From contig OZ244816.1 of the NCBI GenBank assembly GCA_965220255.1, forward strand, positions 1,010,852 to 1,074,851: a stretch of DNA of 64,000 nucleotides, given 5' to 3'. Origin of the DNA: Dehalococcoidia bacterium. GTDB lineage: Bacteria; Chloroflexota; Dehalococcoidia; Lucifugimonadales; VXLM01. Each line of letters opens with the position of its first letter. Within the stretch, counting starts at the first letter, position 1. Shown in pieces: positions 418-15,999 of the stretch. Made by a program: the position numbers and the translations under genes. The notes below the pieces were generated by a model. That model was not told where the DNA came from, did not search any database, and was given only the letters and a program-made list of their open reading frames with translations.

Positions 418-2094
418 ATGGGAGCACGGAGAGGATATATGCCAACGAATATCAACGACCCGGACGAGATCATTCGCGCGGTGGGACGGCAGGAGGAGCA
501 GACGCTTCCGCTGCGGGACCGCATGGAGGGGGACTACCGGCTGTACCGGTTGGAGCCGTTCCAGGAGGTGGACGGGTACGGGCAGCCGGTGGAGGGGTTT
601 CGGAGCTACACGTCGAACGCGCCGCAGGTGTACGCGGACAAGGTGATCCAGTGGATCGCACGGGCGGAGTTCGGCATCCGCATCCCGCAGGCGGGCAGGA
701 CGCGGGCGCAGCGGGCGGCGGACGCGCTGAAGGAGAAGTGGACGTGGGGGCTGATGCGGTCGGTCGACCGTCGCATCCAGCAGCGCATGGAGCCGCCGAT
801 GCGCGACCTGACGGCGTTCCACAACGTCGTGCGGGGGATGGTGGCCGGGCGCTGGCTGATGATGAACACGGCGTCGGGCGAGACGGTGGTGGACATGACG
901 CCGTGGGACCCCATGCACACCTACTGGGCCGTCGGGAGTGAGGGGCTGGAGTGGGCGTGCTACAAGGTCCGCAAGACGCGCGGGGAGATTCGCGCCGAGT
1001 ACGGCGTGGACGTCGGGGAGGACATCGACACGCTCAGGGTGGGAGCGCAGGACGGGGACGAGGCGGAACTCGAGGTGTACGATTTCTATGACCGGACGCA
1101 CAACACGGTGGTCGCGGGTAACAGGGTCGTGCTGAAGAGTCCGACGGCGCACGGGTCCGGACGGGTGCCTGTGGTGATCGTTCCGGTCGGGCCGGTGCCG
1201 CTGGTGCAGACCGACTCGGCGGCGGACTCGGTGTCCGACTACGGCGAGAGCGTGTTCAAGTCGAACCGTGAGATCTACGACAAGCACAACCTGATGATGT
1301 CGATCTTCCTGGAGCTTGCGGCGCGGGCGAGGAGGCCACCGCTGGGGGTGAAATCCCGCGACGGGCGTAAGACGCTGGACGAGGACCCGTACATGGAGGG
1401 GACGACGATCAGCATGAGCGAGGGAGACGACGTGGAGGCGTTCCCGCTGCTGAAGACGACGCAGGACGCGGCGGACCTGACGGGGCGGATATCGGGGGAA
1501 GTGCAGCGCGGGTCGATCCCGCACTCGGTCTACGGGGAGCTCCAGTTCCAGCTATCGGGTTTCGCGATCAACACGCTGCGGTCGGGCCTCGATTCGGTGC
1601 TGAGGCCGCGTCTGATCGCGGAGGCGTCGTTCTACTCGCAGGGGCTGGAACTGCTGACGGAGCAGTACGTTTCGGGGCGGTTCTCGGCGCTGACGGGCTC
1701 GGCAGGCGCGTCCTTCGATGCGGCGATGACGCCGGAGGTCATTTCGCGTGGCGGGACGCCGGAGATCAAGCTGGAGGGCAAGTTGCCGGAGGACGACACG
1801 GCGAAGTACGCGCAGGCAAGGATCGCGCGTGAGGGGACAGTGCCGCTGCTGCCGGACAGGTGGATATACGACAACATCCTCAAGATCCGGGACGCGGACA
1901 ACATCGAGCAGGCGGTGTCGGCGCAGGTGGCGCGACGCGGGACGGCGGAGTCGCTGATGCTGAACTCGATGATCGCGTCGGCCGACCAAGGGGACGACGA
2001 CTACGCGCGGCTGTACGAGAGCGAGTTGCGGCTGGCGAGGATGCGGAAGCTGCTGGAGCTGCAGGGGCTGCGGGAGGAGGAAGCGCGTTCGTGA
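418..2094 (+). CDS. Phage portal-like protein (putative)
   Basis: 558-aa ORF. The likelier start is ATG 439, behind GGAGAGGA at 428-435. Size and position at the head of a same-strand scaffold-like plus HK97-like capsid cluster fit a portal. I could not confirm any diagnostic motif by eye. Confidence 0.5.
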   Translation: MGARRGYMPTNINDPDEIIRAVGRQEEQTLPLRDRMEGDYRLYRLEPFQEVDGYGQPVEGFRSYTSNAPQVYADKVIQWIARAEFGIRIPQAGRTRAQRAADALKEKWTWGLMRSVDRRIQQRMEPPMRDLTAFHNVVRGMVAGRWLMMNTASGETVVDMTPWDPMHTYWAVGSEGLEWACYKVRKTRGEIRAEYGVDVGEDIDTLRVGAQDGDEAELEVYDFYDRTHNTVVAGNRVVLKSPTAHGSGRVPVVIVPVGPVPLVQTDSAADSVSDYGESVFKSNREIYDKHNLMMSIFLELAARARRPPLGVKSRDGRKTLDEDPYMEGTTISMSEGDDVEAFPLLKTTQDAADLTGRISGEVQRGSIPHSVYGELQFQLSGFAINTLRSGLDSVLRPRLIAEASFYSQGLELLTEQYVSGRFSALTGSAGASFDAAMTPEVISRGGTPEIKLEGKLPEDDTAKYAQARIAREGTVPLLPDRWIYDNILKIRDADNIEQAVSAQVARRGTAESLMLNSMIASADQGDDDYARLYESELRLARMRKLLELQGLREEEARS

Positions 2095-2213
2095 CGGGGG
2101 ATTCACCGCAGAGGGCGCAGAGAGCGCGGAGTGAAGAGAGAGGGGGAGGGTTTGGGTCTCCCGCCGGAAGTGTTGCCGGATACTTTCGTGCGGTCGCCTG
2201 AGCCGCCTGGGGT

Positions 2214-2241
2214 GTAGGGGCGATTCGCGAATCGCCCCTAC
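2214..2241. repeat. 28-nt perfect palindrome gtaggggcgattcgcgaatcgcccctac
   Basis: Perfect self-complementary 28-mer between the convergent portal-like and NHL genes; it overlaps the NHL stop codon. The identical 28-mer recurs at 25676-25703, and a variant with a different loop is at 36549-36577. Confidence 0.9.
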
Positions 2242-3263
2242 ATTGGTCTCTTGCCGACGGCGAGAGTGGCGCTGACTGCTGGGCCGTCGTCGCTGGAGAA
2301 GCCGTATGAGCCGTTTCCGGCGACCGTGGTGATGATGCCCGTCGTGGCGTCGACTTTGCGGACGCGGTAGTTGCCGGTGTCTACGACGTACAGGTTGCCG
2401 TCGCGGTCGAGGGCGATGCTGTAGGGCATGGAGAGGCTCGCCTTGCTTGCGGGGCCGCCGTCGCCGGAGAAGTCCGCCCTGCCCGTCCCGGCTACGGTCG
2501 TGATCGTGCCGTCGGGGGCGATCTTTCGGATGCGGTTGTTGGCGCCGTCGGCGATGTAGAGGCTGCCGTCGGAGTCGAGGGCGACATCGCGGGGGAGGGC
2601 TATCGCGGCCTGGCTGGCAGGGCCGCCGTCGCCGGAAAAGGCCTGCTTGCCGTTGCCTGCGACTGTTGTGATGGTGCCCGTCGCCATGTCTACCCTGCGA
2701 ATGCGGGAGTTGCGATGGTCGGCAATGTAGAGGTCGCCGCCTGCGCTGCAAGTCACTGCGATTGGTGAGGCGAGCATGGCCTCCGTAGCCGCACCGCCGT
2801 CTCCTGAGTACCCGTGTTCGCCGTTGCCCACGACGGTGGTGATGATTCCCGTGGAAGCGTCGACCCTGCGGATACGGTCGTTCTTGAGGTCGGCGATGTA
2901 GATGTTGCCGTGTCGGTCGAGGGTGGACCCGTGGGGCGATGCGAGTTGGGCGTGGATGGCGGGGCCGTCGTTGCCAGAGTAGCCCTCGGCGCCGCATCCG
3001 GCGACGGTCGCGATGGTGTTGATTGCGGCATCAATCTTTCGAATGCGGGCGTGGTGGGCGTCTGTGACGTAGAGATTGCCTGCACGATCACCCGTGACGC
3101 GCATGGGGTGTGAGGAGAACGAGGCTTGCGTGGCTGGGCCGCCGTCACCTAGGTCGCCAGTGCCTCCGCCCGCGATGGTGGTGATGACGCCTGTGGTCAG
3201 GTCGATCCTGCGGATGCGGCTGTTGCCGACGTCGGAGAAGTATATGGCGTCGTGGATGAACAT
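2238..3263 (-). CDS. NHL-repeat beta-propeller protein (possibly 5'-truncated)
   Basis: Six ~56-aa tandem repeats with the pattern GDGGPA..A.L..P.G[IV]A.D..GNLY[IV]AD..N.RIR[KR][IV]D..TG.ITT[VI]AG.G. The ORF begins mid-repeat and has no signal peptide. Confidence 0.8.
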   Translation of the reverse strand: MFIHDAIYFSDVGNSRIRRIDLTTGVITTIAGGGTGDLGDGGPATQASFSSHPMRVTGDRAGNLYVTDAHHARIRKIDAAINTIATVAGCGAEGYSGNDGPAIHAQLASPHGSTLDRHGNIYIADLKNDRIRRVDASTGIITTVVGNGEHGYSGDGGAATEAMLASPIAVTCSAGGDLYIADHRNSRIRRVDMATGTITTVAGNGKQAFSGDGGPASQAAIALPRDVALDSDGSLYIADGANNRIRKIAPDGTITTVAGTGRADFSGDGGPASKASLSMPYSIALDRDGNLYVVDTGNYRVRKVDATTGIITTVAGNGSYGFSSDDGPAVSATLAVGKRPM

Positions 3264-3335
3264 TGGGGGAGTGTATCACTTGGGGGTTCGTGCTTACCCC
3301 AAGGCTATTACTTCGATAATTGGAAGCTCAGCCGC

Positions 3336-3364
3336 TTGACAGGACCTTCCAAGTGGCGTAGAGT
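3336..3364 (+). promoter_or_regulatory. Putative promoter of the DGQHR island
   Basis: TTGACA (3336-3341), 17-nt spacer, TAGAGT (3359-3364), in a low-GC stretch. Confidence 0.35.
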
Positions 3365-3434
3365 ATGTACGTACGTCCTGCATAAACGTACATTCTTCTG
3401 TGATTTACGTATGTTGTCGCAGGGTGGACGTACA
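3365..3434 (+). promoter_or_regulatory. Operator-like array of ACGTA palindromic cores
   Basis: GTACGTACGT at 3367-3376, then ACGTA cores starting at 3386, 3407 and 3428 (exactly 21 bp apart). ATGTACGT (3365-3372) and ACGTACAT (3386-3393) are inverted repeats. The array lies between the -10 box and the SD of the 44-aa ORF. Confidence 0.4.
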
Positions 3435-3449
3435 GAAAGGAGGTAGGTA

Positions 3450-3584
3450 ATGGTCAACAAACAATATCACGACCAAGCTAGAGGCATCGTCTGTTTCGGA
3501 ATACGGCGCGGGCGACTATCGGCAAGGCAGCTCCAATGGCTGCTTGGCTATGTCGACCGATGCCGACGACAAGAAAAGCCCTAG
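3450..3584 (+). CDS. Small basic ORF (44 aa), hypothetical
   Basis: ATG at 3450 preceded by AAAGGAGG (3436-3443) at 6-nt spacing. Translation is MVNKQYHDQARGIVCFGIRRGRLSARQLQWLLGYVDRCRRQEKP. It is below the ORF-track cutoff and I recognise no homology. Confidence 0.25.
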   Translation: MVNKQYHDQARGIVCFGIRRGRLSARQLQWLLGYVDRCRRQEKP

Positions 3585-3705
3585 GACAAAGCCTAGGGCC
3601 CAGAAGCGACACGGATGGACGATTGTTGGTTCGGACATCCGTGCTCGCACCGTCCAAAGCATACCACACTGTAAGAACACATCTCAAAGACAAGGAGTAG
3701 AGTGA

Positions 3706-4833
3706 ATGATTAGGTTAAGAGCATTTAAGGGTCGCATAGGTATAACGGACTATTACCTTACCATGGCTACGTTTGGAGAGGTTGCACGTATGGTCAGGTA
3801 CAAGGAGAACGATCGTGATTGGCCTGCGGAATTACGACAGCAACGACCACTCAGCATGACACGCGTAAAGAACTTCATGGTCCCTTATCTGGTGGAGAAT
3901 CCTGACCACTTCTACAGTGCATTGGTCGTGGAGCACCTCCGCCCAGGTGAAACGACACATGATGTCAAATTCATCGAGGATCAAGACGACGAGAACACAG
4001 GATGGGTCGAAATGGAGGGCACTGAGATCCTGGAAACTCTTGATGGACAACACAGGCTAAAGTCGATTGAGTTGGCCGTCGAGGAGTCACCAGAGCTCGC
4101 AAGGGAGACGATAGCCGTGTTGATTGTCCCCCACAAGACTGTTGCGGTCGCCCAGCAGCGATTCTCGGACTTGAACAAGAACGCCAAACCGACTCCGAAA
4201 GCGCTGAATGTAATGTTCGAGCAGCGAGAAGAAGCAGCGTTACTAGCCAAGAACCTGGCCAAAAATTCAAAGATGTTGGATGGCCGAGTCAATTTGGCAA
4301 GCTCAAGTTTGTCAAAGCGGTCTCCCTACATAGTCACGATTTCCAGTCTGTACGAGGCGGTGAAAATAGTAGGGCCAGAATTGCAAGGGGACATCGACGC
4401 AAAGTCCGAGCAGTTGGTAAATTACTGGGACACTGCGTTAGCTGCGATGCCTGACTTCGAACGAATGGTGCAGGGAGAATTAACAGCCGGCGACATTCGA
4501 AGCAAGTACGTGTATGCAAGCGGTCTAGGATTTGAGGCATTAGCAGAAGTCATCCGCACTATACTGGATGACCACCCCGACAAATGGGAAACGGTCCTCA
4601 CAAACGGGCTTCCTCGGATAAATTGGGAACTTGGGAACTTTGAGTGGGAAGGGGTCGCACTGATCGCAGGACGAATCGCGATAGCCAGGGCTCCTCGGCG
4701 ACGGACGGCAACGTTGATTAAATACTTGCTTGGGCTACGGGTTGAAGAGAGCCACCTAGCAGACTTGAAAGAGGCCTACAGCAACTTGGGTCGGAACCTT
4801 CCTAGCCCATTGTTTGTCCCGAAGGCCGCATGA
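3706..4833 (+). CDS. DGQHR-domain protein (DndB-like, ParB/Srx-type fold)
   Basis: Literal DGQHR motif (LDGQHRLKSIELAV) and the downstream QRFSDLNKNAKP motif typical of DndB/DGQHR proteins. AAGGAG lies upstream of the ATG. About 50% GC versus higher-GC flanks. Confidence 0.8.
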   Translation: MIRLRAFKGRIGITDYYLTMATFGEVARMVRYKENDRDWPAELRQQRPLSMTRVKNFMVPYLVENPDHFYSALVVEHLRPGETTHDVKFIEDQDDENTGWVEMEGTEILETLDGQHRLKSIELAVEESPELARETIAVLIVPHKTVAVAQQRFSDLNKNAKPTPKALNVMFEQREEAALLAKNLAKNSKMLDGRVNLASSSLSKRSPYIVTISSLYEAVKIVGPELQGDIDAKSEQLVNYWDTALAAMPDFERMVQGELTAGDIRSKYVYASGLGFEALAEVIRTILDDHPDKWETVLTNGLPRINWELGNFEWEGVALIAGRIAIARAPRRRTATLIKYLLGLRVEESHLADLKEAYSNLGRNLPSPLFVPKAA

Positions 4834-4843
4834 GAACGCATGT

Positions 4844-4872
4844 TTGACATCGGTCTGGACGTGGGATAGACT
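4844..4872 (+). promoter_or_regulatory. Putative promoter between DGQHR gene and scaffold-like gene
   Basis: TTGACA (4844-4849), 17-nt spacer, TAGACT (4867-4872). Confidence 0.3.
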
Positions 4873-4934
4873 CGATTTGTGACGGTCGTCGTTCCGGTGG
4901 GATGGGGGCCGAAACTAAACAGAGAGACGCCAAG

Positions 4935-4977
4935 CAGAGCGTCCCGGAGATTGTTCCGGGGCGCTCTGTGTGTTTTT
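4935..4977 (+). terminator. Intrinsic terminator
   Basis: 14-bp stem (4935-4948 pairs with 4955-4968, one G-U pair), 6-nt loop, then tgtgttttt (4969-4977). Confidence 0.7.
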
Positions 4978-5030
4978 CCGGCATCAAGGACGGAGAGACA
5001 TGGTGGAGATTCAGTGAAAGGAGAGACGAG

Positions 5031-5570
5031 ATGGTGATGGCAACGGACATTGAGGAAGACGGGGCGATGGAGGGTGTGGACGAGTCGGAGGGCGAGGTCG
5101 ACGAGTTCGATCTGGCCGAGCTCCGAAGGGAGTTTGCAGGGCAAACTGAGACCGGTGTAGAGAGTCGGGAGGGTGACTCCGGCGGCGACGAGGGGGATTC
5201 CCAGGGGACTGATGAGGAGGAGTCGGAGGAGCTTTCGTCCGAAGGAGAGCCGTTCGGCTCGGACCGGGAGCGGTATCAGGCGGTGGTGCGCGCGGCGCGG
5301 GAGCACGGGCTGGGAATCGACGACCTCGAGGAGCTAGAGCGTGCGGAGAGCGCGGAGGACGTCGAGCGACGGGCGCGGGGCATGGCGGAGCGGCGGACGC
5401 TGAATCGGAGGGTGGAGGCGCTGGAAAGGCAGCTTGCGCCGGTGCAGCAGTTCGACAGCAACCGTCCGAGCGCCCCGTCGGCCGGCTCCGACGAGACTTG
5501 GATCGACCGGTACATGGCGGGAGACCGGAGCGCGCGAGCGGTTGCAGCGGCGCGACGGGCATTCGATTAG
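5031..5570 (+). CDS. Acidic scaffold-like protein (putative)
   Basis: Start chosen at ATG 5031, behind GAAAGGAGAG and downstream of the terminator that lies inside the longer 4902 ORF. The N-terminal half is highly acidic (D/E-rich) and the C-terminal half is helical and charged. It sits between the portal-like and capsid-like ORFs. Confidence 0.4.
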   Translation: MVMATDIEEDGAMEGVDESEGEVDEFDLAELRREFAGQTETGVESREGDSGGDEGDSQGTDEEESEELSSEGEPFGSDRERYQAVVRAAREHGLGIDDLEELERAESAEDVERRARGMAERRTLNRRVEALERQLAPVQQFDSNRPSAPSAGSDETWIDRYMAGDRSARAVAAARRAFD

Positions 5571-5603
5571 CAAAAACACAGACACAGGCAGAAAGGAGAA
5601 CAC

Positions 5604-6476
5604 ATGCCACAAACAACGAGCACAGGAAACCTGGAGAAGGCCCAGAGGACGATGATCGGGCAGATGCTGTACACGACGGAGCACAACGCGCCCGCGATGG
5701 CGCTGGTGACGCACATGAGGCTGCGGCGCGGGGCGTCGAGCGTGGATGTGCCGAAGGCGGGGCAGATGACGGTGTCGGACCTGGTCGAGGGACAGGACAT
5801 CACGGACGAGCAGAGCCTCGGTATGGAGTTCACGACGCTGACCACGTCCGAGGTGGGCGCGAAGGTGGTGGTGACGGACAAGCTGGTGCGGCAGATGCAG
5901 CCGGACGTGTTCAAGGTGATCGGGCGGCAACTCGGCGACGGCATGGCGCGCAAGAAGGACCAAGACGTGATCGCGCTGTACGGGTCGCTGAACGAAGGGA
6001 CTGCACTGGGGGCTGCGGGCGCGACGTTCAACGTCGCCCATGCGGCGGCGGCGTACACGCACGCAGTGGCCAACAAGTTCGGGACGAAGCTCTCGATCGT
6101 CCACCATCCGAACGCACTGTACAGCATCATCAACTCCGGCGCGATTACGCCGGGGGCCAGCGGTCCGGTCGACGCGGGGTGGTCGCGCGACCTGCTCCAG
6201 CGGTTCTTCGCGGGACTCGCGCCGGTGGGCGGAGTGCCGATGTTCCACGACGGCAACATCGAGGTGGACAACGATGGCGACGCGGTGGGCGTGATCGCCG
6301 ACGAGGGCGCGCTCGTCGTGCTGGAGTCGGTGACGATGCGGACGGAGCGTCAGCGGGACGCCTCGCTGCGGGGCACGGAGGTCGTCATCACGGCGGACTA
6401 CGGGGTCTTCGAGCTCGACGACTCTCGCGGCGCGCCGCTCAAGTACGACGCGACCCCGCCGTCGACATCGGAGTAG
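5604..6476 (+). CDS. Major capsid protein, HK97-fold-like (putative)
   Basis: 290 aa, with GAAAGGAG upstream. Composition and layout resemble Phage_capsid/HK97-type coat proteins (e.g. KVVVTDKLVRQM..DVFKVIGRQLGDGMARKKDQDVI). Positioned after a scaffold-like ORF. Recognition by eye only. Confidence 0.55.
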   Translation: MPQTTSTGNLEKAQRTMIGQMLYTTEHNAPAMALVTHMRLRRGASSVDVPKAGQMTVSDLVEGQDITDEQSLGMEFTTLTTSEVGAKVVVTDKLVRQMQPDVFKVIGRQLGDGMARKKDQDVIALYGSLNEGTALGAAGATFNVAHAAAAYTHAVANKFGTKLSIVHHPNALYSIINSGAITPGASGPVDAGWSRDLLQRFFAGLAPVGGVPMFHDGNIEVDNDGDAVGVIADEGALVVLESVTMRTERQRDASLRGTEVVITADYGVFELDDSRGAPLKYDATPPSTSE

Positions 6477-6487
6477 GCACCCCCTCT

Positions 6488-6523
6488 CTGTATCTCTCCC
6501 CCGCCAGCGCGGGGGAGAGATTG
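6488..6523. repeat. Solo hairpin version of the outer arms of the composite repeat
   Basis: ctgtatctctcccc-cgccagcgc-gggggagagattg reproduces the outermost arms of 1-14 and 321-333 with only a 9-nt loop between them. Confidence 0.7.
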
Positions 6524-6592
6524 ATGGGGCTTTTCTCTCCCGCTGAGAGGGTGTCATTGAAAGGGCATCATCCAGCTTCGGAGACGTCTCTG

Positions 6593-6617
6593 GATTCCCG
6601 CTTTCGCGGGAATGACG
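6593..6617. repeat. REP-like hairpin gattcccgctttcgcgggaatgacg
   Basis: Same hairpin family as 14773-14858, 9162-9213 and the variant at 28398-28427. Confidence 0.7.
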
Positions 6618-6730
6618 GTGGTTATGCAAAGGTCTCCGCCGGCAGGGGAGAGACTGATCGGAATTCACAGCAGTTGCTGATACCCGCATGGCCCCGTGTG
6701 CGGGGCAACGTGTTACTCAGGAGGAAATAT

Positions 6731-7108
6731 ATGGACCGGAAGACGCCCGCGACACTGTCGGAAGAATTGGCGAAGCTCGGCTACACGTGGGAGTACCTCG
6801 ACAAGTGGCAGCCGAAGGTCGACATGTACTGGCACGTCGACCAAGTGAACGTCGCGGGTGAGGTGGTCGGGAGGGCGGGCGCGATGCTGCCCAACCTGCC
6901 CGGCCACCCCGACCATCAGGCGAGGTACGCACGGCGAGGCCTGCTGCCGTGGCCGCCGGGCAAAGAGTGCGAGTGCAAGGGCTGTCGCGAGCGGTACGGG
7001 ACCGAGCGCACGGGCCGCAAGTTCATGTCGCCGGATGACGTGGAACGAGAGGTGGCGAGCGACAGGCTGTTTGGGGGTGGGGGCGCGGGTTCCAAAGCCA
7101 AGGAGTAG
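6731..7108 (+). CDS. Hypothetical protein (phage-module ORF)
   Basis: 125 aa. ATG 6731 is preceded by AGGAGGA (6718-6724). It is the only non-repeat part of the 5498-7108 ORF. No function recognised. Confidence 0.5.
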   Translation: MDRKTPATLSEELAKLGYTWEYLDKWQPKVDMYWHVDQVNVAGEVVGRAGAMLPNLPGHPDHQARYARRGLLPWPPGKECECKGCRERYGTERTGRKFMSPDDVEREVASDRLFGGGGAGSKAKE

Positions 7109-7160
7109 CTCTTTTCTATCCACCTCACTATGAATTTCGTTATTATGGACATGACAGGGT

Positions 7161-7189
7161 GTTGACAGCCCAACCACGTGTTCATACAC
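7161..7189 (+). promoter_or_regulatory. Putative promoter of second low-GC island
   Basis: TTGACA (7161-7166), 17-nt spacer, TACACT (7184-7189). Confidence 0.3.
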
Positions 7190-7263
7190 TGATGCACCCA
7201 TGACAAGGTACGGTTCTCATTTGAGGGACTTCGTACCTCCCCTAAAGAAAGAAGATATCACCG

Positions 7264-7671
7264 TTGGCTGAGTCCCTAAGTCAAGTTGTGCCGGTGATGG
7301 TCGCGGCCTTGGTATGTGATACGGCTGCTACTGAGCCCCACTCTAACAAGAAGAGTCTCATTGGCATCTTCGACAGACTGGAGGCGGTTTCTTTCCCGAC
7401 TCAAAGGATACTCTCTCTTTACTTGAAGCTTACTGATGCCGAGGGGCACTATGAGATGGAGGTGCGGTTCGTTCACCTGAACACCGGAAAAGTGTTGGCC
7501 AAGGCCGAAGGCAAACTCAATCACTCTGATCGGTTAACCTCGGCCGAGATGCTTATCCCGTCACTACCTTTTGAGTTTGGTGAGCAGGGGCGGTATGAAT
7601 TCCAAGTCTGGGCCAATTCGATGTTTCTTGGTTCCACAACCATCGACGCCATCCTGCGATCATCGAAATAG
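7264..7671 (+). CDS. Hypothetical small beta-rich protein
   Basis: 135-aa ORF from TTG 7264 (the ATG at 7297 is an alternative start). Low GC. Vaguely resembles uncharacterised DUF-type proteins with the pattern ..CD.A....gK.SLIGIFD.. No function known to me. Confidence 0.45.
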   Translation: MAESLSQVVPVMVAALVCDTAATEPHSNKKSLIGIFDRLEAVSFPTQRILSLYLKLTDAEGHYEMEVRFVHLNTGKVLAKAEGKLNHSDRLTSAEMLIPSLPFEFGEQGRYEFQVWANSMFLGSTTIDAILRSSK

Positions 7672-7682
7672 GAGATTGAACG

Positions 7683-8120
7683 ATGGTAACAACAGATGCT
7701 GAGATAAAGACTCTAGATTCGCCCGCTACCCAATCGGAGGCCAGTGACCATCCCATCATGGGAGAGTGGGGCTCCCTAAACCCTTCCACACCCCCTCTTT
7801 CCGAAGATGATGGAATAGTAGACATGGGTCCGGCATTTGAGGCAACTAGCCTTCTCGGAACATTAAACGATGCACGGCTAAGAGTTCGGCAGCCGTTCCA
7901 AGTGACTATGGCCACAGAGAATGACGACTTCATTGCGGAGGCCGTGGAGATCGACGAGTTCGGCTTTGGCAAGAACCCATCTTCGGCGGTCCGAGATCTG
8001 CAGTTGACGATCGTCGAACTCTACTTCACGCTCAAGAGCGAGGCAGATCGTCTCGGGCCCGATCTCAAGCGCGTGTTCGGCGTGCTCGAATCAAAGCTCG
8101 ATCTCACCCATGACGATTAA
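7683..8120 (+). CDS. HicB-like antitoxin candidate
   Basis: 145 aa. The C-terminal half (FQVTMATENDDFIAEAVEIDEFGFGKNPSSAVRDLQLTIVELYF) resembles the HicB/UPF0150 N-domain pattern. It overlaps the next ORF by 11 nt. Confidence 0.35.
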   Translation: MVTTDAEIKTLDSPATQSEASDHPIMGEWGSLNPSTPPLSEDDGIVDMGPAFEATSLLGTLNDARLRVRQPFQVTMATENDDFIAEAVEIDEFGFGKNPSSAVRDLQLTIVELYFTLKSEADRLGPDLKRVFGVLESKLDLTHDD

Positions 8121-8379
8121 GGCACGGCAGTTTGATCGATTAGTTCAGAAGCTGGGCCTCAAAACCCGAAGCAGCGACCACCTTCTCGCTTGGTTTGAAC
8201 ATGAAGGCAAGATCATCACCAGAACCAAGCGATCTCGCGGTTCCTCCAGTGACCTGCCGATGCAGCACAGCATTCGGCAACAGCTCAAGATGAACGAGCG
8301 AGAGTTCCAAAGCGCCGTCGGCTGTACCCTAACGAAAGAGGACTACCTGAAGATTCTTCGTATGAAGGGGCTGCTGTAG
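8110..8379 (+). CDS. HicA-like toxin candidate
   Basis: 89 aa. FDRLVQKLGLKTRSSDHLLAWFEHEGKIITRTKRS resembles the HicA/YcfA pattern (h..L.k.G...r..gSH). The 11-nt overlap with the upstream ORF is typical of TA pairs. Confidence 0.35.
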   Translation: MTIKARQFDRLVQKLGLKTRSSDHLLAWFEHEGKIITRTKRSRGSSSDLPMQHSIRQQLKMNEREFQSAVGCTLTKEDYLKILRMKGLL

Positions 8380-8395
8380 TCCGGGTTTCCCCGAT

Positions 8396-8424
8396 TTGAC
8401 ATACCAGCACATCCGTCCTATTCT
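8396..8424 (+). promoter_or_regulatory. Putative promoter restarting the phage-like module
   Basis: TTGACA (8396-8401), 17-nt spacer, TATTCT (8419-8424). Confidence 0.3.
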
Positions 8425-8516
8425 TGATTAGTAACCACCCCTGACCGGCACTGAGCGGGTCGGGAGAATAACCGAATACGACAGAGATGCCGGAGCGCGT
8501 CCCAGTTTAGAAAGAG

Positions 8517-8957
8517 TTGGGGCGCGCTTTGATGTTTAACGAAGGGATGATGACGAAGAACTCCGCTGTCATGTCTGCGGCACGGGATCTGTCGGCGGGT
8601 ATGGAGACGGCGTCGGGGCTGTGGGTGCCGGAGGGGTCGGCGGTGGAGATGCCGTATGTGGCGGGGCCGGACGGAGACACGGGCAGAAGTGTGGTCGTAC
8701 ACCGGTTCCGGTTCCACGATCCACGGACGGGACGGAGCCAGGTCTGCCACGTTCCGGCCCATCCCGATGCCGCTCCGGCCGAGATCGAGGACATGGCGGC
8801 GGAGGCTCTCGAGAGTTTTTTGACCGACGCTCACGAGCTGGGTCCGCTGCACCGTCATACGCCGGAGCAGCGCAAGGAGATCGGCGCCGGAATTCGGGAG
8901 TTCCGCGAGTACGCGGCACGGCGACGGCAGAGTGCCATGAACAAGGTCTATTTCTAG
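8517..8957 (+). CDS. Hypothetical protein (phage-module ORF)
   Basis: 146-aa ORF on the module strand with normal (non-Arg/Pro-biased) composition. No function recognised and the start is uncertain. Confidence 0.4.
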   Translation: MGRALMFNEGMMTKNSAVMSAARDLSAGMETASGLWVPEGSAVEMPYVAGPDGDTGRSVVVHRFRFHDPRTGRSQVCHVPAHPDAAPAEIEDMAAEALESFLTDAHELGPLHRHTPEQRKEIGAGIREFREYAARRRQSAMNKVYF

Positions 8958-9011
8958 GACGTTTCACATCATTCCCGCGGAAGAGGACCTTTGCACAACC
9001 TACCCAACGGC

Positions 9012-9146
9012 CTGTCATTCCGAGCGCAGAGAGGAATCTAAGGCGTCCTGAGGGACCTCATTCGGGCCGTTTCAGCTACGGAACTTCACTTGGAGGGCAA
9101 CAACTTTAGATTCCTCATTCCGCTCCGCTTCATTCGGAATGACAGG
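9012..9146. repeat. Short MITE-like hairpin element (gtcattccgagcg...gaatcta arms)
   Basis: Left arm ctgtcattccgagcgcagagaggaatctaagg and right arm ctttagattcctcattccgctccgcttcattcggaatgacagg are inverted. Same arm family as the inner arms of the composite repeat, but with a different short core. Confidence 0.7.
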
Positions 9147-9233
9147 CGCCGGGGTTATGCAGATTCCCGCCCCATATCGTGGTACGGGGTGACGTTCTTT
9201 CGCGGGAATGACGAATTGAGCTGGAGCTTGGCA

Positions 9234-10094
9234 ATGCACCATCGAGAAAGGACATTCAACATGACAGGCACACACGGACGGACACGGGAACAGCTACGCA
9301 AGAGCATCGGGCGGAACTTGATCGGGCACCAGCTGATCGTCTCGGCGGCAACGTCGGGAGGGGACACGTCAGGCCTCATCGACGATACGCTGCTCGGCGG
9401 GGACGATAACTACATCGGGTGGTGGCTCGTCGCGACTTCGTCCGGGGCGAATGCCGGGGAGATACGGCGCGTGTCGGATTACGACTCCGCGACCTCTCGT
9501 TTGAGTTGGACGCGACCGCTGCCGGAAGCAACGGCCGTCAAAGACTCGTACGAGCTGTGGCCTTCCGAGTATCCGCCAGAGGTCATACACGACTACATCA
9601 ACCAGGCCATCGGCGAGGCGGCGGGGCACATCTACGAGCCGGTGGAGGATTTTTCTCTTAATGCGGGCGGGGGGCTGGCACAGTTCACGATACCAGAGGA
9701 CATCGACGCCATCTCGAAGGTGGAGGTCAGGGTTTCTACTGCGTCGCGGTCCGATGTCGATGCGAACACCGCCGTGTGGCGGACGCTGCCACGGCACTTC
9801 TGGGGAATCGACAAGGGGGAATGTGTCTTGACGCTCACGGACGGGGGCAGGCGTCTGGCGGGCGACGCTCCCCTCAAGCTCGTTGGAGGCATGGAGCCGT
9901 CGTCGCTCCTGGCCGACGCCTCGACGACCGTGGTGCCGGACGAGTTCGTTATCGCACGGGCAACGGCGCTGGCACTACTCGCCTCGCCCGACCTGTCGGA
10001 GTCCGGCAGGGAGGCATGTGCAAGGTGGGACGCCCGGACGCGAGAAGCCCGCGCGGCATTCCCGCTGCTGACGAACGTGCGAAGGGTCGGATAG
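9234..10094 (+). CDS. Phage structural protein candidate (adaptor/tail-proximal), hypothetical
   Basis: Start at ATG 9234 or 9261; the upstream part of the 9090 ORF only translates repeats. About 280 aa, on the module strand, immediately precedes the 639-aa ORF. Confidence 0.45.
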   Translation: MHHRERTFNMTGTHGRTREQLRKSIGRNLIGHQLIVSAATSGGDTSGLIDDTLLGGDDNYIGWWLVATSSGANAGEIRRVSDYDSATSRLSWTRPLPEATAVKDSYELWPSEYPPEVIHDYINQAIGEAAGHIYEPVEDFSLNAGGGLAQFTIPEDIDAISKVEVRVSTASRSDVDANTAVWRTLPRHFWGIDKGECVLTLTDGGRRLAGDAPLKLVGGMEPSSLLADASTTVVPDEFVIARATALALLASPDLSESGREACARWDARTREARAAFPLLTNVRRVG

Positions 10095-10153
10095 CAACAC
10101 GAGGCGTCCCAGTCTTTCGAAAGAGGACCGGGACGACGGACTGGAGAAAATAC

Positions 10154-12073
10154 ATGGCGAAGATCGTAGTCAATCAACAAGAGGTATCCCTGGACGGAAA
10201 GCGGTACCGGATCGCGCCGAGGCGAGGGGCCAGCGTGCGGTCGTTCATCGCGTCGCGGTATCCGGGCAAGCTGGTGCTGGGCGACGTGGGGTCGGACTCC
10301 GACCCGAGGCGCAGCGTGATCAAGTGGACCGATCAGCGCGGCGGGCTGGGAGTGTATAAGCTCGATGCGCGAGACCCGGAACTCGACAGGTGCACGTATA
10401 CGTCGTGTGACGTCCGGTACAAGGGAGGGATCACCCTGCCACCGCTCTCACGGTACACCACGGGCGCCGAACTGTCGGGGGACATCACGGCCATCGGGGA
10501 ACTGAACGACGCATACGGTGACAGCGAAATCTACGCGGCGTGGGGCGGAGGGACGGACGTCCGCAAGTACGACAGCAGGACCGACTCGTGGGGCGAGTCG
10601 CTGCACACGCTGCCGGGCGCGGCGTCGGACGCGGTCACGATCTCACACCCCGGCACTCGTGGAAGCCACGCGCAGTATCTCGTCTTCGCGCACGGGGACG
10701 ACGGGTTCACGTACACTTCGGACGGGACGGCCTTCAGCACCAACGGGAGGGACGCAAAGTTCCTTGCGTACTGGAACGACCGCCTGTGGGGCATAGACGA
10801 TGGCGGGAGACTGTGGCAGGGGCCTGCGGGGCCGCTGAGAACAAGCAGGAGCTCGTGCGTCGACGACGCGGTGCTTCCGCTGCCGGCGGGATACGTCACG
10901 TCGCTGTTCGTCGGGCCGGACCGTTCGGGCAGGCCGATTCTCTACGCGGGGACGAAGGTAGGGCTGTACGCCCACGACGACGCGAACAACCGGTTCGTGG
11001 AGACTCCGGCCAGGTGGCCGAAGCACGACACCGGCGGGTCGGGCGCAACGGCGTGGAGGGGAGTCGTCTACGCGCCGGTTGCACGGCACGTCTATGCCTA
11101 TTCGCCGGGGCGTCGCACATTCGACATTGCCTTCCCTCGACGGGGTGAGGACGGCCTGTTCACAACGGCAGGCGCCAGGGGCGGCATCACCAAGCTCCTG
11201 CCGACCCATCTCGACCTCGCGGTGGTGATGGACGGCCTGGGCGCGCCGTTCACGCCCGCCGACGTCTTCCTCTGGGACGGCGTCGGCGTGAGTCACGCTC
11301 ACACCGTCCTCTCATGGATGTCGATAACGGCGGCGTACGTCTCCAACGCCTATGGGAAATACCGGCTGTGGTGGGCGACCGACGAGGGGCTGTTCGGAGC
11401 ATCACCGAACATAGGCTATACGGAGCTGCCCGATTCGCTGACAAACTCGCGATTCGGTCCCGCGGTGTCCTACGCCACGGGCTACCCTGACGCGAACAGC
11501 TTCCTCCGCGCGTCGCACGTCTACCCGTGGTTCGACGCGGGACAGCCCGAGGTGACCAAGACGGCGCTGCGGCTGAGGGTGGAGACGCAAGACTGCACGG
11601 CGACCGAGGTGATCGAGGTGTACGCGGCGGTCGACTACGCAGACGCGTCCCTGGCACTGGTCGGCACGATCACATCGGACGGAACGACAACATTCAATTT
11701 GCCGAATGAGACGACACCGAACGGCATCGACTTCAAGGCCATTCAGATCGAATGCCGGTTGAAGAGGGGGACGGACGAGACGAAGACACCCGTGCTCGTT
11801 TCAATGGCGTTGGAGTACCGCAAGAAGATTCCGACCAAGTACGGGTTCACCTTCGACGTTGCGCTGAACCAGGAGCATGGCGGACGCACGCCGAAGGACA
11901 TGCGCTCTGATCTGGCGGAGGCCATCGAGAGCACGAACCTCGTCGAGTTCACGTTCCGGGACGACGCAGGCACGACGCGGACGCACTATGTGGACGTGGT
12001 CAGCGTGTCGGGCGGCGAGGAGACCGGCCTCGACGAGCGGGGCACGAGCAGGGTGACGGTGGAGGAGATTTAG
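10154..12073 (+). CDS. Large phage structural protein candidate (tail tube/nozzle-type), hypothetical
   Basis: 639 aa from ATG 10154; the 9776 extension overlaps the preceding gene. Beta-rich. Its position after portal, scaffold and capsid mirrors the podovirus gp11/gp12 order. No motif verified. Confidence 0.45.
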   Translation: MAKIVVNQQEVSLDGKRYRIAPRRGASVRSFIASRYPGKLVLGDVGSDSDPRRSVIKWTDQRGGLGVYKLDARDPELDRCTYTSCDVRYKGGITLPPLSRYTTGAELSGDITAIGELNDAYGDSEIYAAWGGGTDVRKYDSRTDSWGESLHTLPGAASDAVTISHPGTRGSHAQYLVFAHGDDGFTYTSDGTAFSTNGRDAKFLAYWNDRLWGIDDGGRLWQGPAGPLRTSRSSCVDDAVLPLPAGYVTSLFVGPDRSGRPILYAGTKVGLYAHDDANNRFVETPARWPKHDTGGSGATAWRGVVYAPVARHVYAYSPGRRTFDIAFPRRGEDGLFTTAGARGGITKLLPTHLDLAVVMDGLGAPFTPADVFLWDGVGVSHAHTVLSWMSITAAYVSNAYGKYRLWWATDEGLFGASPNIGYTELPDSLTNSRFGPAVSYATGYPDANSFLRASHVYPWFDAGQPEVTKTALRLRVETQDCTATEVIEVYAAVDYADASLALVGTITSDGTTTFNLPNETTPNGIDFKAIQIECRLKRGTDETKTPVLVSMALEYRKKIPTKYGFTFDVALNQEHGGRTPKDMRSDLAEAIESTNLVEFTFRDDAGTTRTHYVDVVSVSGGEETGLDERGTSRVTVEEI

Positions 12074-12075
12074 CC

Positions 12076-12360
12076 ATGAGACTGATACACGGACAGGAAT
12101 CGGTGACGGCGGGCACGCCCGCCCAGCTTACGAGCGAGCCGCTGAGGGCGGTGAAGCTCTGGATAAGGTACGCGGACGGGGCCGAAGGCGTCGCACGCCT
12201 TTCGGGAGCGACGGACAGCGAGGCGGGCGTCGAGATCGGTGAACAACTCGCGGAATTCGACTTCACGGCGGCAGGCAGGGGCAGCGTAGACGCCTCCGGG
12301 CTGTACGTGGACGTCTCGACCGGCACGCAGACCGTCACCTGGACGCTGATGGTGGCCTGA
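12076..12360 (+). CDS. Hypothetical 94-aa protein (phage-module ORF)
   Basis: Starts 3 nt after the previous stop. Tight packing typical of phage modules. Confidence 0.4.
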   Translation: MRLIHGQESVTAGTPAQLTSEPLRAVKLWIRYADGAEGVARLSGATDSEAGVEIGEQLAEFDFTAAGRGSVDASGLYVDVSTGTQTVTWTLMVA

Positions 12361-12361
12361 G

Positions 12362-12802
12362 ATGATACCGATCGACAGTACGGACAAAGGCGTGCTCTCG
12401 TGGGCCATAGGCATCCTCATCACGGTCAATCTCGGCGTGCTTGGATGGTCGGTCGCTGTGCTGGACGGGAAGGCGGACGACGCAGCGGTGACGCGCATCG
12501 AGCGGCAGGCGGAGGAGATCGAGCGTCGCGACCGTGACTATCTGGTTCGCTCCCAGATCGAGGACCTCGTGCGGACCGGGTCGCCCTACGTGAGCGACAA
12601 ACCGAAGATCGAGGACCAGCTCGACAAGCTGGAGGCGGACGTCGCCCGCAACGAGGGGGACATCCGCGCCACAACGCGCTCGCTCGTGCGGATCGAGACG
12701 CAGGTCGCGCAGATACGGGAGACGCTGCAAAAGCTGGACGGCAAGCTCGACGAGATCACGGAGGCGCTCGCCCGCGCCGGGGCGCTGGCGCGTCGGGAGT
12801 GA
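12362..12802 (+). CDS. Membrane-anchored coiled-coil protein, hypothetical
   Basis: N-terminal TM helix (WAIGILITVNLGVLGWSVAVL) followed by a heptad-like charged helix. Starts 2 nt after the previous stop. Last ORF of the module. Confidence 0.45.
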   Translation: MIPIDSTDKGVLSWAIGILITVNLGVLGWSVAVLDGKADDAAVTRIERQAEEIERRDRDYLVRSQIEDLVRTGSPYVSDKPKIEDQLDKLEADVARNEGDIRATTRSLVRIETQVAQIRETLQKLDGKLDEITEALARAGALARRE

Positions 12803-12810
12803 GGGGCCAG

Positions 12811-12872
12811 GCCCGTTCGTGGTGAGCCTGTCGAACCATGAACGGGCTGCGCTTCGACAAACTCCGGGCGAG
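12811..12872. repeat. REP-like hairpin (ccgttcgtggtgag..tcgaacc family)
   Basis: 12-bp stem gcccgttcgtgg/ccatgaacgggc. Related copies at 20922-21006 and 29522-29582 share ggttcgaca[ag]gctcaccacgaacgg. Confidence 0.7.
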
Positions 12873-13013
12873 TTGCGAAAACTAGCGCCAATCCCCCAAA
12901 ATTCCCCCTACCCCGGCGCTATCCTATTGGAAGTCGATGCGTTATATAGTGTAGCATCGGCGCGCCGAGGCTAAGCGACGTGCCCTTGGCAGCTCCTGAC
13001 ACGGGAAGCCGAC

Positions 13014-13616
13014 ATGCCCGACCGCAACGATGCTCCGTCAAAGGAAGAAGTAGAGGACCTGGTACGACGAGCGCAGCAGGGACATAGTGAGGCGTTTGGG
13101 GGCCTGTATGAGGCCTACTACGACAAGATCTATCGCTACGTGATGTTCAAGACCGGTGACAGCCTTGAGGCGGAGGACCTGACCGAAGAAGTGTTCCTGA
13201 GGATGTTGGAGTCGATAGGCTCCTTCAAATGGCAGGGGTATCCATTCACGTCGTGGCTCTTTCGTATCGCGCACAACCTGGTAATCGACTACTACCGGAA
13301 GTCCGGACGGCAGAAGAAGACCTCGCTCGACGACGCGATGAGGGTGGTGGGGACGGACGGCGTGGACGTGGACAGGAAGCTCGACATCGAGCTGTCGATC
13401 AAGGAGGTCAAGGATGCGATGGGCGGGCTGACGCAACTGCAGCAGGAGGTGCTCTCGCTGCGGTTCGCGAGCGGGCTGTCGGTCGCAGAGACGGCCGAGG
13501 CGATGGGCAAGAAGGAAAACGCCGTCAAGGCGTTGCAGCACGCGGCGATCAAGAAGCTCCGAACGCTCCTTGGACCGGCGATGGAACAGGGCCTGATAAG
13601 CCAAGGCGGTGCATAG
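13014..13616 (+). CDS. ECF-type RNA polymerase sigma factor
   Basis: Region 2 (YRYVMFKTGDSLEAEDLTEEVFLRM..WLFRIAHNLVIDYYR) and region 4 HTH (LSVAETAEAMGKKENAVKALQHAAIKKLR). Confidence 0.9.
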   Translation: MPDRNDAPSKEEVEDLVRRAQQGHSEAFGGLYEAYYDKIYRYVMFKTGDSLEAEDLTEEVFLRMLESIGSFKWQGYPFTSWLFRIAHNLVIDYYRKSGRQKKTSLDDAMRVVGTDGVDVDRKLDIELSIKEVKDAMGGLTQLQQEVLSLRFASGLSVAETAEAMGKKENAVKALQHAAIKKLRTLLGPAMEQGLISQGGA

Positions 13617-14499
13617 GATGAGCGCAACCGTAGACGACGTACTGAACGAATGCATCGAGCGTCTCGCCTCGGGTGAGACGGTCGAGCAGTGCCTCGCGAG
13701 CTACCCCGACTTCGCGGTCGAGCTGGAGCCACTCCTGCGCACCTCCGCCGCGACGATGAACGTCGCCAACGCGATCACGCATCGCGAGGAGGCCAAGCAG
13801 CGGAGCCGCTATAAATTCATGGCGGCCATTGCCGACAGGGAGAAGACGAGCAAGCAGGGATGGCTCGGACGTCTCATCGGGCCCACGAACTGGCGAGTGA
13901 AACTCGCGCGGACGGCGCTCGTTGCCGTCGGCATCGTCGTGCTGGGGACGGGCACCGCGTACGGCGCGACCGTCGCATCGGAGGACAGCGTTCCCGGCGA
14001 TCCTCTCTACGCCGTCAAGACCCTCAAGGAGGACATCTCCCTGCGGATGCCCAAGTCCGACCTGGCGCGGGCGAAGGAGCACGCCCACCTGGCGAACGTC
14101 CGCACCGAAGAGGTGGGCACCCTCATCGACCGTGGCAGGATGGAGCAGGCGAACGCTCACGTCGTGACTGTCACGTACCACCTGAACTCCTGCGCGGAGA
14201 TCGTCGGCGTCACGGTCACGGCGCATGCCAACCCTCTTGAAATGCCCGCCGCGACCTCATCGATCGACCAAGAGCAGCGGGTAGCCGAGCTCGTCGCGTT
14301 CTACGAGGCCGAAGCACAGCGTGCGCGAAACCGCTTCGAGCGCCGGATGAGGCGACTGCCTCCGCACCGGCAGTGGGAAGCCTACCTGATGATGCAGCAG
14401 TGGGAGCTGATGCACCGAACGTTTATGCAGACCTTACTGAACGACGGGCTGCCCAGATGGACCGTCGGTGTCGACCCGAGGTCCGGACCACCGCAATAG
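13609..14499 (+). CDS. Anti-sigma factor candidate (single TM, DUF5667-like ectodomain)
   Basis: Overlaps the sigma gene stop (start GTG 13609 or ATG 13618). Central TM (ALVAVGIVVLGTGTAYGA), then PGDPLYAVKTLKEDISL, which resembles DUF5667. Confidence 0.6.
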   Translation: MHRMSATVDDVLNECIERLASGETVEQCLASYPDFAVELEPLLRTSAATMNVANAITHREEAKQRSRYKFMAAIADREKTSKQGWLGRLIGPTNWRVKLARTALVAVGIVVLGTGTAYGATVASEDSVPGDPLYAVKTLKEDISLRMPKSDLARAKEHAHLANVRTEEVGTLIDRGRMEQANAHVVTVTYHLNSCAEIVGVTVTAHANPLEMPAATSSIDQEQRVAELVAFYEAEAQRARNRFERRMRRLPPHRQWEAYLMMQQWELMHRTFMQTLLNDGLPRWTVGVDPRSGPPQ

Positions 14500-14530
14500 C
14501 GTCGGACTGCGCCTTACCGCATTGCGTAAC

Positions 14531-15585: not shown

Positions 15586-15999
15586 TCATGGGCGCGGGGC
15601 ACGTATTAGGTGCAAACCGGGGATGTCGTCAAAGTCGCCGTCGTCTGAGGCGACAGGACAGGAAAGGCGTATTGCGGTGGCCGCGATCCAGGCATCGGCT
15701 GTGCTTAGCTTACGCCCAGCCCTCTCTCGTTCGACACGCAAATTCGCAGAAATGTCCGTCGTTTCTTGGTCAGGCCAGACCACCTCGTATTGGTCTAAAT
15801 GGAGCTCAAGTCTGTTTTTCTGACGCGCGCCCCATCTAGCTTTGTACGCTCCGTACCACACTTCTTCAATCGACTGAAAAGAAACCACCGCGCGCTGACC
15901 AGTCATATGGGGTAGATAGAAGTCGCCTCGCTCATGTCCCTTGAACAGAAGCGAAACAACGCTCGTATCCAAGACAATCACTCTGAATGCTTCCGCCAC
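15586..15999 (-). CDS. vapC: PIN-domain toxin (VapC-like)
   Basis: GTG start. VIVLDTSVV near the N-terminus, later acidic residues (SIEEV.., STADAWIAATA, VASDDGDFD), 137 aa. Classic PIN layout. Confidence 0.8.
   Translation of the reverse strand: MAEAFRVIVLDTSVVSLLFKGHERGDFYLPHMTGQRAVVSFQSIEEVWYGAYKARWGARQKNRLELHLDQYEVVWPDQETTDISANLRVERERAGRKLSTADAWIAATAIRLSCPVASDDGDFDDIPGLHLIRAPRP

Follow-up and report, generated by a model that had tools for sequence, protein, structure and literature searches.

An orphan DndB/DpdB-family cassette with putative self-operators in a podophage-derived gene cluster of a Chloroflexota chromosome

To our knowledge, DndB and DpdB are known solely as accessory parts of large DNA-modification defence systems, and a lone gene of this family within a phage-type structural cluster raises the question of what it does there. 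Such a gene, encoding a 375-amino-acid (aa) protein, lies on an island of about 1.5 kb between a portal gene and scaffold/capsid genes in a 64-kb stretch of a Chloroflexota (Dehalococcoidia-type) chromosome (contig OZ244816.1), referred to here as the window. The original prediction, made from the sequence alone, described a TTGACA-N17-TAGAGT promoter, the element GTACGTACGT, three ACGTA cores 21 bp apart, a 44-aa open reading frame (ORF) with a Shine-Dalgarno sequence (SD), and a protein carrying DGQHR and QRFSDLNKNAKP motifs, all of which can be read in the window. The locus is an orphan DndB/DpdB-family cassette that belongs to neither a Dnd nor a Dpd system; it has been horizontally exchanged and inserted into the variable gap between the portal and scaffold genes of a podophage-derived cluster. 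We consider it reasonably likely that the island as a whole is an exchanged cassette with one functional orphan gene that regulates itself via GTACGTAC-type palindromes. Its main features and downstream border are given below (related loci are cited as L001 and so on).

3293-4830, + strand: inserted cassette (island), delimited by colinear blastn against the empty-site element L189 and by a drop in G+C content (GC)
3336-3341 and 3359-3364, + strand: sigma-70-type promoter TTGACA-N17-TAGAGT, 10/12 matches in a consensus scan
3692-3697, + strand: SD of the DGQHR protein gene, AAGGAG, read directly
3706-4833, + strand: gene of the 375-aa DndB/DpdB-family DGQHR protein, ATG at 3706, identified by Pfam, NCBIfam and PADLOC
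4838-4985, + strand: promoter (4844-4872), leader and terminator of the scaffold/capsid operon, outside the island, conserved in L002, L106-L108 and L189

The 375-aa protein is a clear member of the DndB family and contains a DGQHR domain. Both profile searches proposed with the original prediction returned matches above cut-off: Pfam DndB (PF14072) with an E-value of 3.6e-74 and 250.3 bits against a cut-off of 29.1, covering profile positions 3-337 of 338, and TIGR03187 (DGQHR) with 148.6 bits against 58.85. The literal DGQHR motif is encoded at nucleotides (nt) 4042-4056, corresponding to residues 113-117. On the TIGR03233 DndB equivalog model, the protein scores 195.5 bits, below the cut-off of 328, and does not qualify as DndB sensu stricto; dpd-linked Chloroflexota proteins score similarly (179-187 bits). 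DndB is also the sole PADLOC label (1.3e-62). Among 30 relatives, D113, G114, Q115 and R117 as well as a Q..F.DLN..AK block are invariant or nearly so, and the C-terminal domain shows no conserved catalytic motif of HEPN, SspE or other nuclease type. One candidate HEPN-type Rx4-6H motif, RVEESH near the C-terminus of the window protein, was rejected, its arginine being replaced in most relatives (consensus 'GLPV...H'). The solitary gene is under strong purifying selection, with ratios of non-synonymous to synonymous divergence (dN/dS) of 0.05-0.13, and together with the full-length ORFs this rules out a pseudogene or decaying remnant. By analogy with the family, the protein is predicted to combine the DGQHR motif and a ParB/Srx-type nucleoside triphosphatase (NTPase) domain with a helical C-terminal domain. 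DpdB is a homodimeric, DNA-stimulated ParB-fold ATPase (PMC10164549), a DndB-like protein binds ATP and GTP (bioRxiv 10.1101/2025.10.10.680097), and for DndB, the ParB-like N-terminal region has been placed in one group with the AbiU1, AIPR and COG1479 families (PMC3632139). The biochemistry of the window protein is likely that of DpdB.

Family scans of the 67 window ORFs found no Dnd, Dpt, Ssp or Dpd partner families among the top 25 families of each scan, within which strong matches to DndC/D/E, DptFGH or DpdA/TGT would have ranked; the earlier statement that no dndACDE, dptFGH or dpd gene lies in the window is thereby borne out. Dnd and Dpd families are equally missing from the flanks of L001-L007, L028 and L104-L108. 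The arrangement that defines a Dnd system, dndB beside dndCDE, was found neither in the window nor in the flanks of L001, L002, L004, L005 and L104-L108, and the clustering of a B gene with dpdA and preQ0 genes that defines a Dpd system was not found within the window. Homologues at 60-80% identity occur in Chloroflexota, mostly in metagenome-assembled genomes of Dehalococcoidia, and sit in unrelated housekeeping contexts. In L001 the flanking genes are an ABC-transporter gene and gidB, in L004 sodC and a hydantoinase gene, and in L005/L008 a DUF58 cluster and an amidohydrolase gene, while the L104 copy adjoins ilvD. Further contexts are a position beside DUF499-DUF1156-SNF2 defence genes (L105), one between FAD-oxidase and ornithine cyclodeaminase genes (L006), one ahead of a thiolase gene (L007) and one after yidC (L028), while L002/L003, L106, L107 and L108 share the phage-type position of the window. 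The nearest system-linked relatives (L009-L013) have 36-38% identity and occupy the DpdB position of complete dpd clusters (DpdA in 5, DpdE in 3, DpdF in 3, QueE in 5, QueC in 3), and farther relatives adjoin Dnd-associated methyltransferases or helicases.

These nearest relatives, which belong to dpd clusters of Dehalococcoidia and Tepidiformaceae, suggest that the gene could be a displaced component, that is, a DndB/DpdB B subunit or regulator working in trans with a phosphorothioation or 7-deazaguanine system elsewhere in the chromosome. DpdA and DpdB form no stable complex (PMC10164549), and physical linkage is therefore not mechanistically required. However, the cassette is found alone at 12 or more loci of various genomes, one and the same element may have or lack it, its operator spacing is unlike that of the dpd-linked loci, and a genome scan of L008 found just one DGQHR gene of this family. 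In an indirect test for an unlinked dpd cluster, with a Chloroflexota DpdA as query, none of the best 120 DpdA matches came from the source contig (3,477,165 bp) or the L002, L004 and L005 contigs, whereas the dpd-bearing L009, L012 and L013 genomes were recovered. A displaced component is thus distinctly unlikely.

How the gene came to lie where it does is best seen from a related element without it. L189, from a 3.64-Mb chromosome, carries the portal gene, a 93-aa ORF, an NHL gene (on the reverse strand), the scaffold gene and the capsid gene in the same order as the window, and no DndB-like gene. Colinear blastn shows homology between L189 and the window up to 3292 and again from 4831, with 162 unrelated bp between, and the L189 element is otherwise 83-90% identical to that of the window. 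L189 thus represents an empty site and the cassette a true insertion. Consistent with this, GC is 0.48-0.54 across 3151-4800 against 0.62-0.70 in both flanks, in agreement with the island of about 50% GC noted originally. The phage-type nature of the surroundings also stands. The 558-aa protein encoded upstream, initially called portal-like, is confirmed as such by fold, with Foldseek E-values down to 3e-13 and a probability of 1.00 to the portals of phages SU10, Pan3 and T7; Pfam, PHROGs, PDB phmmer and phage tblastn searches were all negative, and the fold search alone identified the protein. The 290-aa protein is identified as a podophage-type major capsid protein by its Pfam match and by tblastn matches to its counterparts in podophages. 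None of 80 fetched phage relatives of this capsid protein (from more than 500 in IMG/VR) carries the DndB-like gene. The moron-like placement proposed at the outset is therefore backed by the empty site in L189 and the indel at 3293-4830: as in phage morons, the gene lies between two conserved phage genes, is absent from a related element, and has its own promoter and atypical GC.

The cassette has also been exchanged between elements. Synonymous divergence (dS) of the DndB-like gene from the copies in L002, L106 and L108 is 1.4-2.3, and that of the portal, capsid and sigma genes is 0.24-0.32, so that the gene has diverged from its sister copies about 5-8 times as far as its neighbours (some scaffold and o8517 dN/dS rows against L002 were left out, being in the wrong frame). 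With cassette dS far above neighbour dS, the alleles have been exchanged rather than co-inherited. In L001, where the context is unrelated, homology starts at the -35 element and stops at the stop codon. A transposable element or integron cassette was rejected on the grounds that there are no common terminal or flanking repeats and no adjacent recombinase; no transposase, integrase or recombinase lies in the flanks of the homologous loci (L001, L002, L004, L005, L104-L108). An 11-nt inverted repeat at the ends of the L001 cassette is not conserved and was judged to be due to chance.

At its 3' side, the island ends earlier than originally proposed. The terminator at 4935-4977 that had been taken to close it belongs to a conserved scaffold/capsid operon leader and is found at L189 as well. 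A terminator-like hairpin (4934-4969) with a T-run follows a second promoter-like site at 4844-4872 in the consensus scan, and the unit at 4838-4985 has 83-92% nt identity in L002 and L106-L108 and is also kept in the island-free L189. As the unit is present where the island is absent, it is the leader of the scaffold/capsid operon and no part of the island. The sister copies in L002, L106 and L108 carry about 170 extra nt past the stop codon with a hairpin of their own (GGGGACGC...GCGTCCCC); the window copy has lost this 3' hairpin segment, and its stop codon abuts the conserved leader. The leader unit itself consists of TTGACA-N17-TAGACT, about 60 nt of leader and a strong intrinsic terminator directly 5' of the scaffold gene. 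It is more conserved than the adjoining coding DNA in five related elements, including the one without the island, and resembles a late-operon leader of the lambda PR'-tR' type or a small RNA gene needing antitermination.

How the cassette gene might be controlled is suggested by its promoter region. A TTGACA -35 element and a TAnnnT -10 element are found at the equivalent position in L001, L002, L004 and L104-L107, and four ACGT-core sites lie between the -10 element and the SD of the micro-ORF. The promoter thus carries palindromic TACG/CGTA sites of the kind expected of a DndB-type autorepressor.

3367-3376, + strand: putative operator O1, GTACGTACGT, a perfect GTACGTAC palindrome over the predicted transcription start, an invariant GTACGTAC block in the alignment
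3384-3392, + strand: putative operator O2, AAACGTACA, ACGT core at 3386; an ACGTAC or GTAC site in L001, L002 and L105
3404-3413, + strand: putative operator O3, TTTACGTATG, ACGT core at 3407; a middle site in some loci only
3426-3434, + strand: putative operator O4, GGACGTACA, abutting the SD, core 42 bp from that of O2

ACGTA occurs at 3386, 3407 and 3428, in exact 21-bp steps, and once more at 3369; seven of the 86 matches in the window (both strands) fall inside 3368-3432. The only perfect GTACGTAC in 64 kb is that at 3367, and GGACGTA (3426-3432) is the reverse complement of TACGTCC (3372-3378). The array is a clade-specific cis element, and its predicted conservation in related loci was confirmed. 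The block TACGTAC(G/A)GAAAGGAGG is kept in the window, L001, L002, L004, L105 and L106. Upstream of 14 of the 17 clade members (at least 49% identity), the hexamers GTACGT, ACGTAC and TACGTA occur 3-12 times, against an expectation of at most 0.3, an enrichment of at least 20-fold, and no relative below 45% identity has any of them upstream. Cores standing 21 or 42 (±1) bp apart are seen in 12 loci (window, L001, L004-L007, L024, L026, L028 and L104-L106). The first site overlaps the predicted start point or, in L105, sits in the promoter spacer, and the last abuts the ribosome-binding site of the first gene (in the closest clade the micro-ORF, in L028 the DndB-like gene). Within the window, there is no sign of a wider regulon: no further perfect GTACGTAC was found, one-mismatch matches are at chance level, and heptamer half-sites beyond the cassette occur singly and scattered.

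In Salmonella, DndB (DptB) is a repressor of its own operon that footprints a pair of TACG-N10-CGTA palindromes in its promoter, and mutation of the sites weakens binding (PMC4507180). The suggestion that the DGQHR protein itself binds the array remains the best reading, given TACG/CGTA half-sites like those in this footprint. Sites are kept in relatives that lack the micro-ORF, which leaves the large protein as the only constant candidate binder, and the clade-specific phased sites together with the Salmonella precedent make autorepression the best-supported mechanism. The GTACGTAC repeats on the cassette promoter are thus most likely the cassette protein's own repressor sites, and the array would be the clade's version of the family operator.

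A comparable element was observed in the Chloroflexota dpd clusters L009-L013. The DpdB of Salmonella Montevideo has a DGQQR rather than a DGQHR motif, whereas in these clusters the DpdB position is taken by a DGQHR/DndB-family protein. Its gene is preceded, at a distance of about 100 nt, by a TACGT(CC)-N21-(GG)ACGTA palindrome, with a further ACGT in codons 3-4 (ATGGCGACGTA), and this palindrome is likely the operator of that dpd system. The outer half-sites of the window array, TACGTCC and GGACGTA, are the heptamers of the dpd-linked palindrome as found upstream of the DGQHR gene in L010, L011 and L013. This identity allows another explanation, anti-defence by operator mimicry, in which an element-borne paralogue shuts down dnd or dpd operons via their TACG/CGTA operators and regulates itself likewise. 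The cassette does ride in a phage-derived element, with an allele turnover far above that of the genes beside it, and true phages also carry solitary DGQHR genes. However, the half-sites are 47 nt apart here and 13-21 in dpd promoters, many copies lie in plain chromosomal contexts without mobile-element genes, and the benefit to an invader of repressing modification genes alone is not obvious. We therefore regard operator mimicry as very unlikely.

Alternatively, the ACGTA array could be a 5' untranslated region (UTR) RNA structure, a host-factor site or a DNA methylation site rather than an operator of the DGQHR protein. In the predicted mRNA, O1 pairs with O4, the paired stretch taking in the flanks CCTGC and GCAGG as well as G-U pairs, and the leader has an unusual stability (z = -4.3). 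Restriction-modification systems typically target sequences such as GTAC, ACGT and TACGTA, and a methyltransferase-Mrr fusion gene lies beside the cassette in L002. Yet the L105 palindrome lies between -35 and -10 and hence upstream of the transcript, one of the L104 copies overlaps the -35 element, and the motif follows the cassette through many hosts while being specific to the protein clade. With the DndB footprints as precedent, a non-operator role of the array appears highly improbable.

Several observations nevertheless weigh against an exchanged, self-repressing orphan. The operator assignment draws on precedent and co-occurrence, and three of the 17 clade members (L027, L029 and L014) have no motif within 200 nt. 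The spacing is unlike that of known or related systems, full ACGT palindromes at 21/42 bp standing against N10 in Salmonella and N21 in the dpd-linked loci, and the pairing of the palindromes with each other in the predicted 5' UTR means that DNA and RNA roles are not separable. A PDB structure search with an AlphaFold2 model of the protein (predicted local distance difference test, pLDDT, 86.9) placed SspE and ParB-N domains at the top with non-significant E-values, and a PDB sequence search with the family profile gave no match; the ParB/Srx-fold assignment therefore rests on the family literature. No terminal repeats or target duplications are shared among four loci that could point to a mobility mechanism. 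Finally, orphan status is read from the window and the flanks, and an unlinked partner system may exist elsewhere in the source genome.

Between the array and the main gene, the closest relatives share a structured leader with a small ORF.

3450-3584, + strand: 44-aa Arg-rich micro-ORF, ATG at 3450, SD GAAAGGAGG at 3436-3444
3578-3599, + strand: hairpin 1 (GCCCTAGG, 6-nt loop, CCTAGGGC), holding the micro-ORF stop codon, from the consensus fold
3606-3648, + strand: hairpin 2, a long interrupted stem (inverted repeat I3), followed by a conserved TACCACA at 3662-3668

ORFs of 35-48 aa with a strong SD are found at the equivalent place in 7 loci. Their variable columns are distributed over the codon positions as 17/8/30 and a peptide core GIRRRRL..RQLQWLLGYVERC is conserved, a coding signature in support of the 44-aa ORF proposed originally, which has no Pfam, NCBIfam or PADLOC match. 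Its expected conservation in homologous islands holds for these 7 loci only in part of the clade: at 49-65% identity it is absent where operators remain. The micro-ORF and hairpins are confined to relatives of at least 74% identity, and the small ORF is missing from L005, L007, L024, L026 and L028. As operators persist there, the small ORF is not the operator-binding factor. In hairpin 1, 3 pairs show compensatory changes, and in hairpin 2, CGGATG/CATCCG of the window corresponds to CGGGTG/CACCCG in sister loci. Across the leader hairpins, 91% of cells pair, four pairs are compensatory and slid controls collapse; the z-score of -4.3 given above refers to the whole leader fold against shuffles. 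Nucleotide identity is 80-82% in the upstream module and 73-76% in the gene. An Rfam scan of 3200-5100 with E-values up to 1 matched neither the leader hairpins nor the downstream leader to a family. Micro-ORF and hairpins together are probably an add-on that tunes expression of the large gene.

The same conserved pair of small upstream ORF and structured spacer could be read as part of a toxin-antitoxin (TA) or Abi-like module in which the DGQHR protein would be a toxin, the micro-protein or a hairpin RNA its antidote and the palindromes the means of TA autoregulation. In favour are the small size of the cassette, its autoregulation, its sporadic occurrence and an AT content above that of its host; it occupies one hot spot of an element that harbours PemK, PIN and DUF6941 genes at a second one, and the grouping of the DndB N-terminal region with AbiU1 and its relatives (PMC3632139) would fit. 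However, micro-ORF and hairpins are missing at 49-65% identity though gene and operators remain, so the pair is not always found together. There is no conserved nuclease-type motif in the C-terminal domain, PADLOC sees 'DndB' only, and a 121-nt structured spacer is atypical for type II TA. We give this explanation very little credence.

For the self-regulated orphan, the following mechanism can be proposed. A dimer of the protein would bind the palindromes from one helical face, as known for DndB on TACG-N10-CGTA, and copies two and four helical turns apart would cooperate to occlude RNA polymerase and hold the amount of the protein down. As in DpdB and ParB, DNA binding would probably be switched by the binding or hydrolysis of a nucleotide in the DGQHR pocket. 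The transcript of the closest clade would first encode the 44-aa Arg-rich micro-protein, followed by the two hairpins ahead of the main gene, and micro-protein and hairpins would probably tune the amount of large protein made. The least certain step is the role beyond self-regulation, for which we favour a self-contained accessory role on DNA, either defence-island-type or regulatory, over DNA modification because no modification enzyme travels with the gene; the original prediction had named superinfection exclusion, defence or anti-defence as candidate roles. A bolder version, which we judge fairly unlikely, is a minimal single-effector immunity or counter-immunity module, namely an autoregulated ParB-fold NTPase that would load onto GTACGTAC-type sites and target incoming or resident DNA, or dpd/dnd promoters, with no modification enzyme involved. 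Its most derived form would be gated by the Arg-rich micro-protein and an RNA hairpin.

The surrounding element has features of its own. The block at 418-14500 is a podophage-type structural module comprising portal, scaffold, major capsid and conserved 146-aa and 765-aa proteins, with no terminase, replication or integrase genes visible in it and an ECF sigma factor gene (13014-13616) directly after the structural module. Other Chloroflexota chromosomes (L002, L189) carry the block at 83-92% nt identity, and it may be a domesticated or decaying prophage remnant; from about 15 kb onwards, the window consists of ordinary housekeeping DNA. An NHL/teneurin-type beta-propeller gene (2238-3263, - strand) lies between the portal gene and the island and is also present in L189. 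In L002, a 57-aa remnant of this gene (9366-9539) is found beside an inserted N6/N4-methyltransferase-Mrr fusion gene. The NHL gene and this fusion gene show that the portal-scaffold gap collects several independent insertions. A second low-GC variable hot spot (7050-8400) separates the capsid gene from the next conserved gene and holds DUF6941 (7264-7671) and small ORFs (7683-8120 and 8110-8379) in the window, a PemK toxin gene in L002, and DUF6941 and a PIN gene in L189. Farther downstream, a reverse-strand pair with low GC at third codon positions consists of a PIN-domain gene (15586-15999, - strand) and an overlapping 286-aa ORF without Pfam match (15978-16838, - strand), and may be another imported toxin-type module.

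Four traits set the cassette apart: it belongs to a solitary clade under strong purifying selection, it has kept a recognisable form of the family self-operator, it is swapped among Chloroflexota, across both genomes and phage-derived elements, and an empty site is known. If the orphan has an activity of its own, it would be a compact and testable addition to the ParB-fold NTPase switches and would help to explain the solitary DGQHR genes scattered in phages and defence islands. Were a single-effector module to prove true, orphan DGQHR proteins would be a functional class in their own right and not remnants of Dnd or Dpd systems. Even if the cassette is merely a self-repressing passenger, it offers a clean natural example for studying DndB-type operator recognition, with three spacings to compare (N10, N21 and 21/42 bp). 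The biology is coherent and readily testable, and it extends known family behaviour without overturning it.

Among known systems, KorB of plasmid RK2 is a ParB/Srx-fold nucleotide switch on mobile DNA that binds short promoter palindromes and represses. The likeness is one of description; the cassette has no ParA or KorA partner, and its own promoter is the only visible target in 64 kb. Solitary phage DGQHR proteins (Vibrio phage Va_PF430-3_p42, Pseudoalteromonas phage KB12-38) are likewise stand-alone DndB-like proteins with no dnd partners, but share only about 24% identity with the window protein. With phage morons, the cassette has in common its own promoter, atypical GC, a place between two structural genes and presence/absence polymorphism, but the window copy lacks a downstream hairpin of its own, the host element is partial and possibly domesticated, and the cassette is also found outside phage contexts. 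The DpdB-position proteins of Chloroflexota dpd clusters (L009-L013) are the closest system-linked relatives, from the same phylum and with TACGT/ACGTA half-sites in common; here, however, adjoining DpdA, QueC/D/E and DpdC-K are lacking and operator spacing differs. DndB/DptB of Salmonella enterica Cerro 87 and Streptomyces lividans shares PF14072 and the DGQHR domain, with about 31% identity to a Salmonella DndB, and both systems have repeated TACG/CGTA palindromes in their own promoter. Compared with DndB/DptB, the window gene has no dndCDE, here or at any close homologue, and scores 195.5 bits against the equivalog cut-off of 328; its array consists of GTACGTAC palindromes phased at 21/42 bp instead of TACG-N10-CGTA, and it adds a micro-ORF and a structured leader.

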